A stretch of 64,000 nt of DNA from the NCBI RefSeq assembly GCF_003334785.1, contig NZ_QOWV01000003.1. One strand, given 5' to 3'. The stretch comes from Escherichia coli (GTDB taxonomy: Bacteria > Pseudomonadota > Gammaproteobacteria > Enterobacterales > Enterobacteriaceae). Shown here piece after piece: positions 52,006-59,392 of this stretch. Made by a program: the position numbers and the translations under genes. The notes under the pieces are model-generated. The model did no database searches, was not told where the DNA came from, and worked only from the letters and a program-made list of their open reading frames with translations. Positions within the stretch are counted from its first letter, which is position 1; every line of letters starts with the position of its first letter.

Positions 52006-54153
52006 TTACGCCAGTGCCGCTTCGCGCAGGCGAGTTTTCAACTTGTTGTACTCGTCAATCACGTACTGCTCGGCGGCGCGCTGATCGGCGATCGGCTCGA
52101 CGCGAACGGCGCAGTATTTGTACTCCGGCGTTTTCGTAATCGGGCTTAAGTTTTCAGTAACCAGCTCGTTACAGGCACCAATCCACCACTGGTAGGTCAT
52201 GTAAATCGCCCCTTTGTTCGGACGATCGCTGACCTGCGCACGGGTGATAATTTTGCCTTTACGCGAGTGCACCCAAACCAATGCCTCATCTTCAATACCC
52301 AGACGTTTGGCGTCTTCGGTATTGATTTGTGCGTAGCCAGGTTCATCAGCCAGCGCCGCCAGTGCCGCACAGTTACCGGTCATCGAACGGCAAGAGTAGT
52401 GACCAACTTCACGCACCGTTGACAGTACCATCGGGTACTCGTCGGTGAGTTTGTCGATTGGCGCTACCCAGTCGCAGGTGAAGAACTGCGCCAGACCGTT
52501 CGGGGTATCAAACTTCTCTTTAAACAGATAAGAAGTCCCCTGATCGGCATCTGAAGTATCGCGGCAAGGCCACTGAATGAAGCCCAGTTCGCCCATTTTC
52601 TCGTAAGTCGCACCGTAGAAATCCGGGCACAGATGACGCAACTCATCCCAGATCTCCTGGGTGTTGTTGTAGTGCATCGGATAACCCATACGGGTGGCGA
52701 TTTCACTGATGATTTGCCAGTCCGTTTTCAGATCCCATTTCGGTTCAACCGCCTTGAAGAAACGCTGGAAGCCACGGTCAGCCGCAGTAAACACGCCTTC
52801 ATGCTCGCCCCACGACGTTGACGGTAAAATAACATCCGCCGCCGACGCGGTTTTGGTCATAAAGATGTCCTGAACGATAACCAGTTCCAGATCTTCAAAG
52901 GCTTTACGTACTGCCGACAGCTCCGCGTCAGTTTGTAGCGGATCTTCGCCCATAATGTACGCGGCACGCACTTCGCCATGCGCTGCGCGGTGCGGCAGCT
53001 CGCTGATGCGATAGCCGGTATGCGCTGGCAGGCTTTCCACGCCCCAGGCTTTGGCGAATTTCTCGCGGTTAGCCGGATCTTTCACGTACTGGTATCCCGG
53101 ATACGTATCCGGCAGCGCGCCCATATCGCAGGCACCCTGAACGTTGTTCTGACCACGAACCGGGTTAACACCCGCATGCGGCTTACCGAGGTTACCGGTC
53201 AGCATCGCGAGGCTGGTCAGAGAACGCACGGTTTCCACGCCCTGGTAGAACTGGGTTACACCCATGCCCCACAGGATGGCGGCGCTTTTCGCCTGGGCAT
53301 ACATCCGTGCCGCCTGACGAATCTCACTGGCGCTGACGCCGGTGATATCTTCAACCGACTCCGGCGTGTAGCCTTCAACGATTTTACGATACTCTTCAAA
53401 GCCTTCTGTACGTGAAGCGACGAACGCTTTGTCGTACAGATTTTCTTCAATAATGACATGGCCCATCGCATTCAACAGCGCGATGTTCGAGCCGTTTTTC
53501 AGTGCAATGTGCATGTCAGCAATGCGCGCGGTTTCAATTTTGCGCGGATCGCAGACGATAATTTTCGCCCCGTTACGTTTAGCGTTAATTACGTGATTCG
53601 CCACGATTGGGTGGGAATCCGCCGGGTTGTACCCGAAAACGAACACTAAATCGGTATTATCAATTTCGTTAATAGCATTGCTCATTGCGCCATTACCGAC
53701 CGATTGGTGCAGACCTGCAACCGATGGGCCGTGTCAGACACGAGCGCAGCAGTCAACGTTATTGGTACCAATAACGGCGCGCGCAAATTTTTGCATTACA
53801 TAGTTGGTTTCGTTACCCGTACCACGCGAGGAGCCGGTCGTCTGGATGGCATCCGGACCGTACTTCTCTTTGATGGCGCTCAGGCGCTCGGCAACGTAAT
53901 TCAGTGCCTCATCCCAGGAAACAGGTTCGAGTTTGCCGCCACGCTGGCGACGGATCATGGGGGTTTTCAGGCGCGGGGTCAGGATCTGGGTATCGTTAAT
54001 GAAGTCCCAGCCATAATAACCCTTCAGACACAGGGTACCCTGGTTGGTTTTCCCCTGCGCTGCCTCCGCCCGGACGATTTTGCCGTTATCGACGACCAGG
54101 TTGATTTTGCAACCTGATGCGCAATAGGGGCAAACCGTGACGACTTTTTTCAT
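52006..54153 (-). CDS. fdhF: formate dehydrogenase H, selenocysteine-containing (UGA recoded as Sec at codon 140)
   Basis: ORF track splits it into 53734-54153 (MKKVVTVCPYCASGCKINLV...CCARV) and 52006-53685, in the same frame and separated only by one TGA (reverse complement of 53734-53736); reading through gives 715 aa. Confidence 0.93.
53690..53733 (-). other. SECIS stem-loop directing selenocysteine insertion at the fdhF UGA
   Basis: Minus-strand sequence directly 3' of the UGA reads cacggcccatcggttgcaggtctgcaccaatcggtcggtaatgg, matching the fdhF SECIS hairpin as I remember it (GGUUGCAGGUCUGCACC apical stem-loop). Confidence 0.8.
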
Positions 54154-54202
54154 CGGTCTCGCTCCAGTTAATCAAATCACGCATACGCGCTCTCGACTAC
54201 AG

Positions 54203-54350
54203 TATGCATCTTTTATGCCACATTTTATGTGGGGTCATTCCCTGATATTACGGGCACTATTTATTCAAAACTCTGACGAAAAACAGGCTGTCGTCAGTTT
54301 TGACGTGACGAAACGAAATACCGCGTGACAGCCATCACGCGGCAGACATT
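54203..54350 (-). promoter_or_regulatory. sigma54 promoter and FhlA-type upstream activating sequence of fdhF
   Basis: Minus-strand TGGCATAAAAGATGCATA (reverse complement of 54203-54220; GG-N10-GC) about 50 bp upstream of the fdhF ATG; repeated tgtcgtcag / tgacgtgacg / cgtgacag motifs at 54290-54340. Confidence 0.65.
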
Positions 54351-55817
54351 TTATTTTTTCTCGACGACGGGACCTGCCTGATACCCGCCGCCCAGCGATT
54401 TCATCAACTGAATGCTTTGGATCACCCGGCGGCTGTCCAGCATCAGTAATGACATCTCTTCGGCAAGCACTGGCAACCGGGCTTCGGTGGCCTGTAAGCG
54501 GCTGGTTAAGCCGCGCTGATAGGCGGCCTCGGCAGCGCGCTGGGTAAAGCGCGTGGCTTCCACGCGTTCAGCCTGCATTTCTCGCTCGTCGTTGAGCGTT
54601 TGCAGACGCGTGCCGTTGACGGCAACGTCACGCACCGCGTTCAGTACTGACTGGTTGTAACGTTCAATCATCATGTTGCTGGCGGCGCGCGTGCCTTCGA
54701 GATTGGCATTCAACCGTCCACCGTCAAACAGCGGCAATTTCAGACCCGGGATGAAGTTGAACTGGCGACTGGTTTTTTTGAATAAGGTATGCAGATGGAT
54801 GGAGTCCAGACCGAAAAACGCTTTGATATCAAAGCTCGGATAGAACAACGCCCGCGCGGAATCCACCTGATCTAATGACGCCTGAACATACCAGCGCATG
54901 GCTTGCAGATCCGGGCGTCTGGCGAGCAACTCATAAGAGAGTGTCGCCGGAATGCCGGTCTGGACTTGCGGTAATGCCACCGGTCTGATCTCCGGCATAT
55001 CGCTGGCTCCCGCGCCAATCAATGCACGCAGAGATTCTCGCGTTTCGGTGATTTGCCCTTTGACGGCAACAATTTGTTTATCGACCGCCAGAATCTGTGC
55101 CCGCGCGCCGTGGAAAGGCACTTGCGCTTCCAGACCGTGCGCCACTTTACTCTGGTGCGCTTTCACCGCGTAATCAATCACATCGTGAGTTTGTTCTAAC
55201 AGATCGAGCATCTGATAGCTGGCCTGCATACTGTAATAAAGCTGCGCTACGCCCGTGGCCAGCGATAGCTCTACTGCTGCGGTTTCTGCCAGCGCGGCAT
55301 TATGCGCGCCAATGGCGGCGGCAACCGCTGAGCGATGCACACCCCACAAATCAAGATCCAGTCCGGCAAACAAACCTACTGTGGCTTCCGTATAGTACGG
55401 CCCGTCCATACCCAGTGCTGGCGCATCCATTGAATAAGGGCTTAAAAAGCCGTTCGCCGAGACACGTTGGCGGTTGAGCATCCCTAACGCTGCGACCTGT
55501 AATTGTGAACCGGCATCTAACAAATCGGCCTGGGACTGCGCTTTTTCTTCCCGCAGTTTCGCTTCGGCGAGGGTGTGTGAACCACTTAGCGTCCGTTGGA
55601 TCAGCGCATCCAGCTGCGGGTCATTGAGTTGTTTCCACCACTGCGCCTGCGGCCAGCCGGAGCTGGCAAGATGAATATCGTCGGCCAGTTTGATTTGTTC
55701 CGGTTTGAGCTGTTGATGAGGTGCAGAATCCTTACGTACCAGGGCACAGCCGGAAATCAGCGTCGTGCTGCCGAGAATGCTGCACAACAGCAGACGTGAA
55801 AGTTGACGATTGATCAT
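54351..55817 (-). CDS. mdtP: outer membrane factor lipoprotein of a tripartite efflux pump
   Basis: 488-aa ORF with lipobox (LISGCA) MINRQLSRLLLCSILGSTTLISGC...; 4-nt overlap with mdtO. Confidence 0.9.
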   Translation of the reverse strand: MINRQLSRLLLCSILGSTTLISGCALVRKDSAPHQQLKPEQIKLADDIHLASSGWPQAQWWKQLNDPQLDALIQRTLSGSHTLAEAKLREEKAQSQADLLDAGSQLQVAALGMLNRQRVSANGFLSPYSMDAPALGMDGPYYTEATVGLFAGLDLDLWGVHRSAVAAAIGAHNAALAETAAVELSLATGVAQLYYSMQASYQMLDLLEQTHDVIDYAVKAHQSKVAHGLEAQVPFHGARAQILAVDKQIVAVKGQITETRESLRALIGAGASDMPEIRPVALPQVQTGIPATLSYELLARRPDLQAMRWYVQASLDQVDSARALFYPSFDIKAFFGLDSIHLHTLFKKTSRQFNFIPGLKLPLFDGGRLNANLEGTRAASNMMIERYNQSVLNAVRDVAVNGTRLQTLNDEREMQAERVEATRFTQRAAEAAYQRGLTSRLQATEARLPVLAEEMSLLMLDSRRVIQSIQLMKSLGGGYQAGPVVEKK

Positions 55818-57865
55818 TGCGTGGCTCCTTGTGCCTGTTCCGTGGCGGGCGTTAATGCCGGGGCTGTCCAGTCTGGCAAGCGGGCGAAAAGCTGGCAGAC
55901 GTGTTGCTCCTGTTTTAATAAGGTGGGCAGGATGGCCTGAGAGGCGGGTGTCTCTTCAAGCGTTATTTGAGGAGAACGGCTGAGTGCGGTTGCCAGACCG
56001 GCAGCGTATTTCTCCAGGGCGTCGGCAAACTGACCTGCTCTGTCCGGCTGTAGTGCGTTATCCAGCGCCTGCGCCGAGTTCCAGGTGGCATCCCAGGCGT
56101 GAAGAAGATCGCGGCCCTGACGAATAACCGTTTGCGAACGTTCAATCAGTAATGCGCGTTCTTCGCTGTCCAGTTGACGCTCCAGCGCCACGCGTTGGCA
56201 CATCTCTTCACAGGCATTAAACGCCGCATGCAGACCGATACGAATTTGCAGATAAGTGCGCAGAGCCGTGACTTCCTGCTGGCGTGGGATCCGCATTACT
56301 TTACTTAACATACCCAGCGTGCCAGCCAGTTTTTGCGGCAGTGTGCGCGCTTCACTTTCAGGCCAGACAAAGGTGTAAATCACCGCGGACACCACGGTAC
56401 CAATGATGATACCCAGGGCGCGATCGCGAATTTCCACCAGGTCGTACACTGGGCCAAAAACGTTTTCGAGCGTGGCGAGCGCGAAGGTGACCACCATCTG
56501 TGTGCCGATATAAGAAGAGCGTTCAGAGCTGGTGGCAATCCATGCGCCCAACAGGAAAATCGGTGCCAGCACAAACAGCAATTCGACAATATTGTCCAGC
56601 CAGGGCATGACCAGTAGCGTGAATAACAGCGCCAGAATCGCGCCGCAAAAGGCCCCGCCAAAACGCAGCACCATCTTCTGGTACGACGAACCGACATTTG
56701 GGTTAGCGACGATCACGCATGTCAGCATACAGGTGTGAATGCCTTCCCAGTCCACGCCGCTGTAAAAGGTGTAACAGATCAAACAGGCGAGCAGCGTTTT
56801 TACCGCGTAGCGCATATAGTCTGGATTGGTAAAAGCATCGGCGGCCATTGATGGCGGTTTGGCTGCGGGCGTTGGCGGCGTATTCGGGTCCATCTGACCC
56901 AGTTGTAACAACGTCTGGCAGATATTCTCCAGGTTACATTCCCGTGCCGCCATCGCTTCACTTTCACTGATCCGCCAGTCGCTTTGCCAGCACTGACCTT
57001 CAGCAACGGCATGCTGCAGCTTGTTGATTTCTGAAGCTAATTTTTGTCGGAATTCAATAATTGCCTGAGAATCAGCAAAAGAGGTGGGATCGTAGCGATT
57101 CAGCGTCGAGTAAATGTAGGTTACCGTTGCCACGCAGCTTTGCCACCATGCGTTTTGAGTTCGCCAGTTGGCATCGTCCGCGAGGCAAAAGACATTGAGT
57201 TTTTGTAGCGCCAGCGCCTCTCTTTCAATCCGCGTTTCGGGTAGCGGTGCGAGGCTGTCTGTCAGGTGACTAATGGCATCATCAAGCCGATCATTAAGCG
57301 CCTGATGCATTTGCGAAATGGCACGACTGGGAAACCACAGCACGCCGATTAACGTCATCAGCAAGGTTGGATAGAGGCCAACAACGATACACCACAGCGT
57401 TAAGCGCACGACCACTTCCGGATAGTCGAGCATGGCGGGGAAGGTTTGCCCGTAAATAGCGACAATGGCGACGGCGAAAAAGACCAGCCCCAAGCGATGG
57501 GTGCGCATCAAAAACATGCAGCCCATCAGGATCGGTCCGGCGATGATCAATCGGATCAACGGTTCGCCGTATGACCATTTGTAGATCAAAAACAGGCTGC
57601 CGATCTCCAGCACCGTGGCAACCACAAACAAGATCGCGACAAATTTGGTGTAAAACGCGTTCGACTGAATACCGTAAAACAGCACTGCCAGCGATAACGC
57701 CACAAAAGGGATCTCAAAGGTCATCGAGATCAGAATCACCAGCAGGCAGCCTACCCAGAGTTGCACGGTCTGCGGCACGCGACCTGGTCGCCGCTCGCTT
57801 AACTCTTCATGAAAGAACGCCAGCAGCCTGACCACCGGTAATGGCAGGGAGTTGAGCGCGCTCAT
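55814..57865 (-). CDS. mdtO: inner membrane efflux component (FUSC/aromatic acid exporter-like)
   Basis: 683-aa polytopic ORF MSALNSLPLPVVRLLAFFHEELSERRPG...; start overlaps mdtN stop by 1 nt. Confidence 0.9.
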   Translation of the reverse strand: MSALNSLPLPVVRLLAFFHEELSERRPGRVPQTVQLWVGCLLVILISMTFEIPFVALSLAVLFYGIQSNAFYTKFVAILFVVATVLEIGSLFLIYKWSYGEPLIRLIIAGPILMGCMFLMRTHRLGLVFFAVAIVAIYGQTFPAMLDYPEVVVRLTLWCIVVGLYPTLLMTLIGVLWFPSRAISQMHQALNDRLDDAISHLTDSLAPLPETRIEREALALQKLNVFCLADDANWRTQNAWWQSCVATVTYIYSTLNRYDPTSFADSQAIIEFRQKLASEINKLQHAVAEGQCWQSDWRISESEAMAARECNLENICQTLLQLGQMDPNTPPTPAAKPPSMAADAFTNPDYMRYAVKTLLACLICYTFYSGVDWEGIHTCMLTCVIVANPNVGSSYQKMVLRFGGAFCGAILALLFTLLVMPWLDNIVELLFVLAPIFLLGAWIATSSERSSYIGTQMVVTFALATLENVFGPVYDLVEIRDRALGIIIGTVVSAVIYTFVWPESEARTLPQKLAGTLGMLSKVMRIPRQQEVTALRTYLQIRIGLHAAFNACEEMCQRVALERQLDSEERALLIERSQTVIRQGRDLLHAWDATWNSAQALDNALQPDRAGQFADALEKYAAGLATALSRSPQITLEETPASQAILPTLLKQEQHVCQLFARLPDWTAPALTPATEQAQGATQ

Positions 57866-58896
57866 TATTGCGGCTCAAGATTAGCGACTGCCGAAGCGCC
57901 GATGCGGAACATTTCCGGGTCAGGTTTATCGACCATGATTTTGACCGGAAAACGCTGGGCAACGCGGACCCAGTTAATAGAACGAGACACTTTCGGCAGG
58001 CCGCCCAGCACCAGGCCGCCGTCATCCGGTAGCACGCCGTAGCCAATCGAATCCACTTTACCCTCGAAGGTTTTGCCGCTGTCACTCATCAGGCGAATCG
58101 TTGCGGGTGTACCTGAGCGAATATTTTTCAGATCGGTTTCGCGGAAGTTGGCGATCACATACCAGTGACGAGTGTCGATTAGGGTAAAAATAGGGCGCAT
58201 GGCAGAAGCAAATTGCCCGACGGAGGTTTTGAGGGAAATGACCCGGCCATCAAACGGCGCGCGAACGGTCGCCATTTCCAGATGCAGTTTGGTCAGGGCA
58301 ATATCCGCTTCGACCGCCGCACGCTGGGCAACTAATGCATCCACGCCGCTGACGGCGCTGGCGGCTGACTGCGCCTGTAACAATACGGCATTAAGATCCG
58401 CTTCTGCGGCGCGCTGCGCCGTTCTTGCACGGTCAACATCTTCCGCTGAGACAAAACCTTCTTTCAGTAATGGCTCGGTGCGGCGTAATGTATCTGTGGC
58501 CTGTTTCGCGGCGGCACGGGCTTTTTCTACCGTGGCATTAACCGAGTCGGCACCAAACTGTTGCGCGTCAACGCTACGCTGGGTGAGCATAATTTGCTTA
58601 TCCAGCGCCGCGAGGGAGGCTTCAGCTTTCGCCAGATTGGCTTCGTACGGGCGCGGGTCGATGCGGAACAGCAAATCGCCCTGTTTGACTGCCTGGTTGT
58701 CGGTGACCGCCAGTTCTACAATGCGGCCGCTGACTTCCGGTACCACATCAATGGTATCTGCTGACGCGTAAGCGTCATTAGTTGATGGCGCACTGTCTAC
58801 GCGCCAGATAACGAAAACAAGGGCAACCAGCGCCAACGCAACCACTAACAGAGCAGGGAATTTACTGCGAGGAGCTTTTTTCGGCGTACTTTCCAT
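57865..58896 (-). CDS. mdtN: membrane fusion protein (HlyD family)
   Basis: 343-aa ORF MESTPKKAPRSKFPALLVVALALVALVFVIWRVD... with coiled-coil hairpin region. Confidence 0.9.
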   Translation of the reverse strand: MESTPKKAPRSKFPALLVVALALVALVFVIWRVDSAPSTNDAYASADTIDVVPEVSGRIVELAVTDNQAVKQGDLLFRIDPRPYEANLAKAEASLAALDKQIMLTQRSVDAQQFGADSVNATVEKARAAAKQATDTLRRTEPLLKEGFVSAEDVDRARTAQRAAEADLNAVLLQAQSAASAVSGVDALVAQRAAVEADIALTKLHLEMATVRAPFDGRVISLKTSVGQFASAMRPIFTLIDTRHWYVIANFRETDLKNIRSGTPATIRLMSDSGKTFEGKVDSIGYGVLPDDGGLVLGGLPKVSRSINWVRVAQRFPVKIMVDKPDPEMFRIGASAVANLEPQ

Positions 58897-58914
58897 GAGC
58901 GCGTCTCAAATAGA

Positions 58915-59190
58915 TTAGAAAAATGCCAGCCAGAACAGCATGGCGTAGAGAGCAAAAAGGGCGGTATAAATAATTCCGACAAATGCCAGATTGATATTTG
59001 CCCGCTGAATAACTCGCCTCGTGATGAGCGTCAAAATAAGGCTGGCAATGGCGCAGAAAAACCAGCTGGGATAATAAGCGCCGATCACCGGGATTGCCGG
59101 AGATAATGAGCATCCCGAAACCATGAAGACGGGAATTATCCAGGCTGTTTTTTTGAGTTGCATCGCCATGCGAGAGAGAACTGTTGGCAT
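58915..59190 (-). CDS. ytcA: small lipoprotein upstream of mdtN
   Basis: ORF 58915-59238; start placed at internal ATG (MPTVLSRMAMQLKKTAWIIPVFMVSGCSLSPA...) giving 91 aa with lipobox. Confidence 0.7.
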   Translation of the reverse strand: MPTVLSRMAMQLKKTAWIIPVFMVSGCSLSPAIPVIGAYYPSWFFCAIASLILTLITRRVIQRANINLAFVGIIYTALFALYAMLFWLAFF

Positions 59191-59351
59191 ATTAAATACA
59201 TCCTGTCTGCTGCGAACAATATCTGTAGTGAATATCAATATCCATTGAAGGCGTCAGTATGGCTATTTTCTTGATGAATAAAAATAGCTTTATTCAGCCA
59301 CCGCATTCATAACTTATATATTTTATTTATTAATTGGCTGTATATATTTTT

Positions 59352-59392
59352 AAAATAAATACTTTTGGGGGCTTCAGCGCCCCCAAAAGCGA
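59352..59392 (-). terminator. rho-independent terminator of yjcS
   Basis: ttttgggggcttcagcgcccccaaaag hairpin 7 bp after the yjcS stop; T-rich tail on the minus strand. Confidence 0.75.

Follow-up and report, generated by a model that had tools for sequence, protein, structure and literature searches.

YtcA as the probable small subunit of the FUSC-type MdtNOP efflux pump of Escherichia coli

The tetrapartite fusaric-acid pump of Burkholderia, Bucl8-FusC-FusD-FusE, has been described as an efflux system with a FUSC permease and a small protein among its components (PMC7682875), and DUF1656 genes show cofitness with the genes for adaptors and FUSC proteins (10.1101/072470). In AcrAB-TolC, the small inner-membrane protein AcrZ binds the transmembrane (TM) domain of the permease and tunes its substrate range (cited in PMC7682875). 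Rv2571c, a bacterial FUSC channel with a single repeat, has been proposed to act as an ALMT-like homodimeric anion channel (10.64898/2026.03.10.710584). For MdtNOP of E. coli (formerly YjcRQP), published phenotypes involve puromycin, acriflavine, pyrrolomycin, and armeniaspirol (PMC8672772, PMC8277102, PMC11762307), and the literature treats the locus as three genes, often mislabelled as MFS and with ytcA ignored (PMC8277102, PMC11762307). The locus analyzed here, including YtcA, is the very same one with no sequence difference, and we consider it likely (probability of about 0.7) that ytcA-mdtNOP encodes a four-component, envelope-spanning FUSC-type (PET / aromatic-acid-exporter) efflux system with YtcA as its small subunit.

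The window (i.e., the whole 64,000-nucleotide stretch of DNA that was analyzed) is E. coli K-12. The DNA of the locus matches strain MG1655 at 100% identity, and the RefSeq annotation contains exactly the same four genes, arranged on the minus strand as ytcA, an 18-nt spacer, mdtN, mdtO, and mdtP (Table 1). This is the known K-12 ytcA-mdtNOP operon, an ordinary and already annotated locus, and 5420 of the 5426 complete E. coli genomes carry the block. The four genes form one unit bracketed by hairpin terminators: the upstream limit is set by the hairpin directly after the stop codon of yjcS, the gene upstream of ytcA, and the downstream limit by the hairpin that follows mdtP. A sub-threshold Rfam match turned out to be the yjcS terminator hairpin itself and was discarded as a chance match. 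No strong sigma-70 consensus was found on the minus strand in the ytcA leader, and the promoter of the operon lacks experimental confirmation according to PMC11762307.

On direct reading, the gene identities, the overlaps of 1 and 4 nt, and the 18-bp ytcA gap given in the earlier note were all correct. Its span (54351-59238) holds the right gene set, but the end at 59238 corresponds to the TTG of the longest open reading frame (107 aa), whereas the 91-aa protein starts at 59190; the invariance of M1 of this 91-aa YtcA among enterobacterial homologues supports the ATG start. The genes were also described as translationally coupled. The stop/start overlaps are present and compatible with coupling, but such overlaps are common in operons and do not prove it; the tight gene packing would keep synthesis of the components coordinated.

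Table 1 Features of the ytcA-mdtNOP unit and its boundaries (positions in the window)
Feature	Position	Strand	Details
yjcS intrinsic terminator hairpin	59361..59390	-	12-bp stem, 7 GC pairs, then T-rich tail
Leader and presumed promoter of ytcA-mdtNOP	59191..59360	-	AT-rich, about 36% GC; promoter position presumptive
ytcA CDS	58915..59190	-	91 aa; ATG at 59190, stop TAA 58917..58915; Pfam PF17090
Cys27 codon of YtcA, lipobox FMVSG/C	59110..59112	-	C27 invariant in 51 diverse homologues
YtcA conserved motif, residues 30-46 (SPAIPVIGAYYPSWFFC)	59053..59103	-	Common to N-terminus of AaeX and YdhI
YtcA predicted two-helix TM hairpin	58921..59067	-	Helices 42-63 and 71-90, basic loop between; AF2 block-mean pLDDT 87-97
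ytcA-mdtN spacer	58897..58914	-	18 nt, ytcA stop to mdtN start
mdtN CDS	57865..58896	-	343 aa; periplasmic adaptor (membrane fusion protein), N-terminal TM anchor
mdtN stop/mdtO start junction	57863..57867	-	TAATG, 1-nt overlap
mdtO CDS	55814..57865	-	683 aa; FUSC-type inner-membrane permease, tandem duplication of ALMT-like unit
mdtO stop/mdtP start junction	55814..55817	-	ATGA, 4-nt overlap
mdtP CDS	54351..55817	-	488 aa; NodT-family outer-membrane factor lipoprotein, lipobox LISG/C, Cys24
Terminator hairpin directly 3' of mdtP stop	54319..54344	-	11-bp stem, 6 GC pairs; downstream limit of unit

The YtcA protein matched the full length of Pfam PF17090 (E=1.7e-15; residues 30-91 aligned to model positions 1-62 of 62), and an exhaustive search recovered 475 clusters of this family. 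In YtcA, the conserved motif is preceded by a signal peptide of 26 residues with a lipobox. Among 215 family members, 189 fitted the lipobox pattern and 209 carried the lipobox Cys; in 188 members, the core Gly follows this Cys at a distance of exactly 10 residues. Invariant positions among the 51 diverse homologues are C27, P31, G37, P41, W43, and W87, and a GAYFPxW motif (also given as GAYYPxW) is conserved ten residues after the lipobox Cys. Based on these features and the AF2 model, YtcA is a lipid-anchored two-TM hairpin with predicted lipidation, and no soluble small lipoprotein. The description of ytcA as a tiny lipoprotein gene needs refining in view of the two-TM hairpin and the homology to DUF1656/AaeX described below. 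YtcA would be cleaved and lipidated at Cys27 and, because of its two TM helices, would be retained in the inner membrane, its N-terminus and GAYYPxW motif facing the periplasm.

Profile comparisons connected YtcA to DUF1656 (PF07869), which includes AaeX, YdhI, and FusD and is encoded by the small leading gene in other FUSC pumps. Fourteen of 51 YtcA members matched PF07869 at E<=1e-3 (best 3e-8) and 32 at E<=0.1, and no other family recurred in more than two of the 51. The match of E. coli YtcA alone was weak (i-E=0.0016, 18.8 bits, residues 35-66); hhalign of YtcA against DUF1656 gave E=8e-6 at 84% probability, with a score of 31.7; the highest score among 200 column shuffles was 21.7, and the reversed alignment scored 12.4. 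The alignment pairs P31, G37, F/Y40, and P41 of YtcA with the P, G, F, and P of AaeX/YdhI (G-x-S-F-P-P motif). YtcA has the DUF1656-type two-TM hairpin, N-terminal G-x-x-F-P motif, and basic cytoplasmic loop, but not the DUF1656 arrangement in which the protein begins at the motif without a cleavable signal, as in AaeX and YdhI. YtcA thus appears to be a remote homologue of DUF1656 that belongs to the same superfamily and is not a member of the family.

To analyze the genomic context of ytcA, two locus samples were used. The order ytcA, adaptor, FUSC permease was found in 75 of 77 evaluable YtcA-anchored loci from many phyla (drawn from the best 80 of 460 matches, a biased sample rich in Burkholderiaceae), and in the sample anchored on MdtO-type permeases, ytcA heads the operon at each of the 14 loci (likewise a biased sample, taken from a plasmid and chromid collection only). 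Two orphan ytcA genes were found (L005 and L066). The linkage spans Beta-, Gamma-, and Alphaproteobacteria, Acidobacteriota, and Verrucomicrobiota, and the genes flanking the ytcA-pump block vary between genera. In nearly all MdtO-type pump operons sampled, ytcA directly precedes the adaptor gene, with a median ytcA-adaptor spacing of 19 nt in related loci (<=30 nt in 72 of 91). The association of ytcA with the pump is as consistent as that of the adaptor. A co-occurrence analysis of ytcA-like genes and pump genes had been proposed beforehand, with a lack of co-conservation as the result that would count against an accessory subunit; both samples gave the opposite result.

The permease MdtO matched Pfam FUSC PF04632 (E=1.3e-17) and FUSC_2 (E=1e-7), and scored 1370 bits with the NCBIfam MdtO equivalog (cut-off 821). 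The MdtO-family profile also matched AtALMT1 (E=4e-4) and GmALMT12 (E=0.006), and hhalign of the N-half against the C-half recovered an internal repeat (E=3.6e-5 over 294 columns). In the AF2 model (pLDDT 89, pTM 0.86), the secondary structure comprises two units of TM bundle plus cytoplasmic helical domain, and the top five Foldseek matches were all ALMT (probability 1.00); the ALMT-like fold of the repeat unit, a FUSC/PET trait, is thus present in MdtO. According to the model, MdtO joins two ALMT-channel-like repeats covalently into a pseudo-dimer, and each repeat has a TM bundle and a cytoplasmic helical domain. These matches uphold the earlier view that MdtO is of the FUSC type rather than RND or ABC: no RND or ABC profile in NCBIfam or Pfam matched, and ABC structures reached a Foldseek probability of <=0.06. 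No solved structure was found for relatives of either MdtO or YtcA. For the partner proteins, MdtN scored 535 bits with the MdtN equivalog NF007785 (cut-off 376) and 419.7 bits with TIGR00998, the EmrA/EmrK subfamily (cut-off 390.8), identifying it by profile as an EmrA-type (HlyD/EmrA) adaptor encoded next to the permease. MdtP scored 1023.7 bits with the MdtP equivalog NF007390 (cut-off 597) and 272.8 bits with TIGR01845, outer_NodT (cut-off 210.05), and carries the lipobox LISGC, features that mark it as a NodT-type outer-membrane lipoprotein channel of the NodT/TolC superfamily.

On the basis of sequence and context, YtcA is probably the fourth subunit of the MdtO-type pump. The role of an accessory subunit is supported by genomics, from which we infer physical association. 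The earlier suggestion that such a small lipoprotein may be an accessory subunit is strengthened by the co-conservation, and its remark that these proteins are poorly understood holds only in part: YtcA is less mysterious than implied because a small fourth component of FUSC pumps has already been described (10.1101/072470; PMC7682875). YtcA would bind the TM domain of MdtO and stabilize or tune the pump, comparable to AcrZ on AcrB. YtcA-linked permeases scored 154-1004 bits on the MdtO HMM, compared to about 6 bits for AaeB and YdhK, whereas the MdtN- and AaeA-type adaptors are still related (about 197 bits) despite the permease divergence. Solely from this parallel divergence, we infer the permease, and not the adaptor, as the partner of YtcA.

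Several other explanations were weighed against this reading. YtcA may instead partner MdtN, for instance by pairing with its single TM anchor to recruit or assemble the adaptor ring, and the position of ytcA directly upstream of the adaptor gene at very short spacing, together with a small gene before the adaptor in aaeXAB and ydhIJK, is consistent with this. We regard it as unlikely, since the divergence between YtcA and DUF1656 follows that of the permease (MdtO and AaeB are barely detectable as relatives, MdtN and AaeA clearly related), and the small gene of the Burkholderia fus operon comes after the permease gene, overlapping its stop codon (PMC7682875). Considerably less probable is that ytcA is mainly a translated leader whose coupling drives mdtN expression, with a peptide of little function. 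The 18-nt gap contains just a weak Shine-Dalgarno-like sequence before mdtN, and the short ytcA-adaptor spacing is conserved; furthermore, PMC8672772 describes mdtOP-mediated resistance without a need for ytcA. There, resistance to pyrrolomycin and armeniaspirol depends on mdtOP, and in pyrrolomycin-resistant tolC mutants a deletion of ytcA and mdtN places mdtOP under the als promoter, so that the phenotype does not strictly require YtcA or MdtN. This also speaks against our main reading of YtcA as a subunit, although the paralogues AaeX/YdhI and AaeA/YdhJ could substitute in these mutants. A pure leader would not, however, keep strong amino-acid conservation across phyla (overall identity about 30%, six residues invariant, the lipobox Cys among them), a fixed Cys-to-motif spacing with a confidently predicted hairpin, or homology to DUF1656, a protein family with mutant phenotypes.

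The notion of YtcA as an envelope lipoprotein independent of the pump, whose gene just happens to lie beside the pump genes in E. coli, could draw on the two orphan copies and on a simulation study that treated YtcA as an ordinary lipoprotein (PMC7139219); it is contradicted by linkage in 75/77 and 14/14 loci with differing flanking genes, and we give it very little credence. Least credible is an assignment of MdtNOP to the MFS-type tripartite pumps, of which EmrAB-TolC is an example, even though reviews list it under MFS (PMC8277102, PMC11762307), the PLSDB feature label reads 'MFS antibiotic efflux pump', and MdtN does fall in the EmrA/EmrK subfamily. No MFS profile in Pfam or NCBIfam matched MdtO, and its comparison to MFS structures, including EmrB, remained at noise level (Foldseek probability <=0.35, TM-score about 0.1); fold and profile tests thus refute an MFS identity of the permease.

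Beyond a four-component system with YtcA as small subunit, a more specific and tentative proposal, which we hold to be rather less than an even bet, is that YtcA is an obligate lipid-anchored fourth subunit specific to the MdtO clade of FUSC pumps. Its periplasmic GAYFPxW motif, kept at a distance of exactly ten residues from the acylated Cys, would dock on the ALMT-like pseudo-dimeric permease and either gate it or link it to the adaptor and the outer-membrane channel; the complete pump would be a channel-like exporter, driven by membrane potential, for anions of lipophilic weak acids, protonophores for example. More generally, the pump would export lipophilic weak acids or anions, and transport may be channel-like and driven by membrane potential, as the ALMT fold suggests. 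If the docked YtcA and channel-like exporter are real, the transport principle would be unlike that of RND, ABC, and MFS tripartite pumps.

The locus is textbook E. coli and reveals no new system, and tetrapartite FUSC pumps are already published. The analysis corrects a widespread mislabel, with MdtO as a predicted ALMT-like FUSC permease and not MFS, and ties the ignored gene ytcA to the pump and to the AaeX/YdhI/FusD small proteins, implying that the FUSC-type pumps of E. coli all follow a plan of four or three parts that includes a small subunit. The role of this subunit can be approached experimentally through the GAYFPxW motif and the invariant lipobox Cys.

Compared to known systems, the plant ALMT anion channels (AtALMT1 7vq3, GmALMT12 7w6k, AtALMT9 8hiw) have a TM bundle and a cytoplasmic helical domain as in each half of MdtO; unlike these channels and Rv2571c, MdtO has two repeats fused in one chain and would work with an adaptor, an outer-membrane factor (OMF), and YtcA. 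The likeness of AcrZ to YtcA is a functional analogy only, with no evident homology: AcrZ has a single TM helix, lacks a lipid anchor, and serves an RND permease, and its gene lies apart from the pump genes. AaeXAB and YdhIJK of E. coli share the order of small two-TM protein, adaptor, and FUSC permease with the ytcA operon (aaeX-aaeA-aaeB; ydhI-ydhJ-ydhK), and their adaptors are clearly homologous to MdtN. AaeX and YdhI share the G-x-x-F-P motif and basic loop with YtcA but lack its signal peptide and lipobox, AaeB and YdhK are marginal on the MdtO-family HMM, and both operons lack the OMF gene found in mdtNOP. Based on its published description, FusD is an AaeX-sized, 67-aa DUF protein with no lipobox reported (PMC7682875). 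The fus operon differs in its order (OMF-permease-small-adaptor), but Bucl8-FusC-FusD-FusE, like ytcA-mdtNOP, combines an OMF lipoprotein, a FUSC permease, a small protein (FusD, about 67 aa), and an adaptor (PMC7682875).

The DNA between positions 54200 and 59400 is 100% identical to that of E. coli K-12 MG1655, and the stretch was found in 5420 of 5426 complete E. coli genomes. RefSeq gives the gene order yjcS, ytcA, mdtN, mdtO, mdtP, and fdhF, and ytcA-mdtNOP is completely annotated in what is the best-studied of bacterial genomes, so that the locus itself is already known. ORF listing and base-by-base reading agree with the four genes, spacing, and overlaps that an earlier note had described for 54351-59238, including the 91-aa length of YtcA. 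The end at 59238 does not hold, since the longest ORF (107 aa) begins there with TTG; the first Met of the 91-aa form is invariant in enterobacterial homologues. As read from the sequence, the stop/start overlaps in mdtN-mdtO-mdtP are compatible with the translational coupling that the note had proposed, short of proving it. Terminators follow both yjcS and mdtP, and therefore the four genes and their leader form one bounded unit.

Layout of the ytcA-mdtNOP operon and its boundaries (positions in the window)
Feature	Position or size	Strand	Details	Basis
Hairpin terminator	59390..59361		strong; directly 3' of yjcS	
Operon leader	170 nt		AT-rich, 36% GC	
ytcA	59190→58915	minus	ATG start, 91 aa, TAA stop	base-by-base reading
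ytcA-mdtN gap	18 nt	minus		base-by-base reading
mdtN	58896→57865	minus		base-by-base reading
mdtN stop/mdtO start	1 base in common	minus	TAATG	base-by-base reading
mdtO	57865→55814	minus		base-by-base reading
mdtO stop/mdtP start	4-base overlap	minus	ATGA	base-by-base reading
mdtP	55817→54351	minus		base-by-base reading
Hairpin terminator	54344..54319		strong; directly 3' of mdtP	

A sigma-70 scan upstream of ytcA gave no convincing minus-strand promoter, and according to a 2025 review the ytcA-mdtNOP promoter is not confirmed (PMC11762307). Scanning the operon and its leader against Rfam revealed neither a riboswitch nor any known leader RNA; the sole, sub-threshold match was a chance match on the yjcS terminator hairpin. 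Downstream, ORF listing cuts fdhF (52006-54153, minus strand) into 139-aa and 559-aa ORFs at an in-frame TGA (53734-53736; 'tca' on the plus strand), which RefSeq spans with one 715-aa formate dehydrogenase H. This TGA is the established selenocysteine-140 codon of FdhF, so there is no real gene break.

Co-occurrence of ytcA with the pump genes was determined from two directions. A search through one genome from each species gave 460 confirmed YtcA relatives, and the analysis used the best 80 loci, drawn from Burkholderiales, Pseudomonas, Erwiniaceae, Nitrosomonas, Alphaproteobacteria, Acidobacteriota, and Verrucomicrobiota; with Yokenella and Kluyvera, these made 82 YtcA-anchored loci, five of them too short to judge. 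ORFs were called at each locus and scored with HMMs seeded from the window proteins. For the pump-anchored sample, tblastn of MdtO against plasmids and chromids returned 42 records, and we examined 14 loci from outside E. coli, with full-length identity of about 35% at the upper end and partial matches at the lower. In the first sample (best 80 of 460, plus Yokenella and Kluyvera), ytcA was followed on the same strand by an adaptor gene and then a FUSC permease gene at 75 of 77 evaluable loci, and in the second it lay directly upstream of the adaptor gene at 14 of 14, values that are not population frequencies because the samples were biased (best matches only; plasmid collection only). An outer-membrane factor (OMF) gene came next in line at 56 of the 82 YtcA-anchored loci. 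The true orphans, lacking a downstream adaptor or FUSC gene, were in Burkholderia sp. Bp8963 (locus L005, 5498-6349) and Pararobbsia alpina (L066, 6941-7225). The spacing between ytcA and the adaptor gene had a median of 19 nt across related loci, intergenic distances being rough under earliest-start ORF calling, above all from permease to OMF. Two apparent exceptions (L050 and L057) were artefacts of the same procedure, caused by its choice of the first possible start in GC-rich DNA. What flanks the block changes from genus to genus, and the conserved unit is therefore the block itself; annotated pump-anchored records carry the PGAP name 'YtcA family lipoprotein'. The co-conservation on which the earlier note had made its idea of an accessory pump subunit depend was thus found in both samples and supports that interpretation; this strong genomic evidence, pointing to YtcA as a component of the pump, is new from the present analysis.

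About a fifth to a quarter of the YtcA-adaptor-FUSC operons have no OMF gene next in line (loci L008, L017, L019, L026, L040, L041, L045, L048, L049, L055, L059, L061, L062, L067, L068, L075, L078, L081, L091, L092, and L099), mainly in Pseudomonas and Acidobacteriota, plus Photobacterium, Sinorhizobium, and Pantoea, where a TetR gene occupies the OMF position. These pumps must either borrow an OMF from elsewhere in the genome or work without one. A MarR-family regulator often adjoins YtcA-type or related pump operons (L002, 4815-6765; L087, 8087-8581; L085, 4366-4800): in Yokenella the regulator is accompanied by a UbiD-family decarboxylase, in B. pyrrocinia it lies downstream of the OMF gene, and in E. 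coli it stands beside ydhIJK. Such regulators hint at phenolic or aromatic acid substrates. Among the annotated neighbours of E. coli ytcA-mdtNOP there is no adjoining regulator gene.

YtcA matched its own Pfam family (PF17090, E=1.7e-15) and no NCBIfam model, and an exhaustive profile search yielded 475 clusters at 50% identity. Two long proteins near the top of that search (P0220, 1321 aa; P0221, 1953 aa) are false positives rather than fusions of YtcA, since their tandem repeats sum at least 10 weak matches of about 7 bits each. Six residues (C27, P31, G37, P41, W43, and W87) are invariant across 51 diverse members, which share about 30% identity with E. coli YtcA. Of 215 members having the core motif, an upstream Cys is present in 209, and in 188 of these it stands exactly ten residues ahead of the core Gly; 189 fit the lipobox pattern, a hydrophobic h-region occurs in 204, and Asp at +2 is rare (4 cases). 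AlphaFold2 returned a helix for the signal peptide, an extended stretch of low confidence that bears the motif (residues 25-41), and, with confidence, two helices (42-63 and 71-90) that form a hairpin with a basic loop between them. YtcA would accordingly be an inner-membrane protein with both ends periplasmic, anchored by two helices and an N-terminal lipid; the 'tiny lipoprotein' of the earlier note stands as a lipobox protein and not as a soluble lipoprotein. Frameshifted variants, with termini matching YtcA and the middle out of frame, exist in some Escherichia and Shigella assemblies (P0095, P0096, and P0089), so ytcA is occasionally inactivated. Some database names mislead: 'formate dehydrogenase H' for some of the YtcA entries and 'electron transfer flavoprotein FixA' for some of the AaeX entries. 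Our literature search found no paper on YtcA function or its relation to DUF1656; one simulation study counts YtcA among ordinary lipoproteins (PMC7139219).

The second Pfam match of E. coli YtcA is DUF1656 (PF07869, the family of AaeX and YdhI), weak at E=0.0016. This family was matched by 14 of the 51 diverse members at E<=1e-3 (best 3e-8) and by 32 at E<=0.1, and every other family appeared in at most two. Profile-profile alignment placed YtcA residues 30-87 on AaeX residues 4-60 (E=7e-5; E=8e-6 and 84% probability against AaeX plus YdhI). The P-x(5)-G-x-S-F-P-P of AaeX/YdhI there meets the residues P, G, F/Y, and P that YtcA keeps invariant. Since the real score (31.7) exceeded the maximum of 200 column shuffles (21.7) and the reversed alignment (12.4), the match is not explained by hydrophobic composition. 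A further homologue search intended to widen the DUF1656 set returned AaeX orthologues only, and the relation rests on the Pfam model and shuffle controls; the AaeX and YdhI sequences were confirmed by exact database look-up. YtcA is a remote, putatively lipid-anchored relative of AaeX/YdhI, an identification new from this analysis.

MdtN, MdtO, and MdtP each gave a full-length NCBIfam equivalog match above cut-off. MdtN also passed the EmrA/EmrK adaptor subfamily cut-off, and MdtP, with a lipobox (LISGC), that of NodT outer-membrane factors. MdtO matched Pfam FUSC and FUSC_2 and had no RND, ABC, or MFS match in the Pfam/NCBIfam profile search, in line with the FUSC type assigned earlier. The 'MFS' label in reviews and resistance-gene annotation is incorrect for MdtO, being contradicted by profiles and a fold test; PLSDB features likewise name mdtN, mdtO, and mdtP 'MFS antibiotic efflux pump'. 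Single-sequence PDB searches with MdtO and YtcA gave nothing useful and no solved MdtO relative. Plant ALMT anion channels were reached only by the fold search and the MdtO family profile (alignment A6, 42 members; AtALMT1, E=4e-4; GmALMT12, E=0.006), and MdtO is therefore a covalent pseudo-dimer of ALMT-like units. The fold-level evidence for an ALMT-like MdtO is added by the present analysis.

Either adaptor or permease could be the partner of YtcA. The MdtO-family HMM scored all YtcA-linked permeases at 154-1004 bits and AaeB and YdhK at about 6 bits, whereas the adaptors AaeA and YdhJ still scored about 197 bits with the MdtN HMM; small protein and permease thus diverged in parallel, which favours the permease as the probable partner. 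In the literature, mdtNOP mutants are sensitive to puromycin, acriflavine, and tetraphenylarsonium (PMC11762307). Pyrrolomycin and armeniaspirol resistance of tolC mutants depends on mdtOP, and ytcA and mdtN are deleted in the resistant mutants (PMC8672772, which summarises the pyrrolomycin result of Valderrama et al. 2019). This speaks against YtcA being strictly essential for the resistance, although paralogues may substitute there. An armeniaspirol-resistant tolC mutant listed in PMC8672772 has MdtO residues 2-9 all changed (S2K, A3T, L4I, N5G, S6T, L7E, and L9C), with no mechanism given. The change sits exactly at the mdtN stop/mdtO start overlap (57840-57867), and a rearrangement at this junction may alter coupling or expression. 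A more novel reading, given a probability of roughly 0.3, would make YtcA an obligate, lipidated subunit of an anion exporter that works like a channel.

Four-component FUSC pumps are already published. DUF1656 genes related to YdhI and AaeX share operons and co-fitness with the adaptor and FUSC protein (Price et al., 10.1101/072470), and a 'tetrapartite' FUSC pump in Burkholderia includes FusD, a 67-aa DUF protein whose location and function are unknown there (Grund et al., PMC7682875). The paralogous E. coli operons aaeX-aaeA-aaeB and ydhI-ydhJ-ydhK have the same order of small protein, adaptor, and FUSC permease as ytcA-mdtN-mdtO. The pseudo-dimer of ALMT-like units in MdtO agrees with the proposal that Rv2571c, a single-repeat FUSC protein, is an ALMT-like homodimeric anion channel (2026 preprint, 10.64898/2026.03.10.710584).
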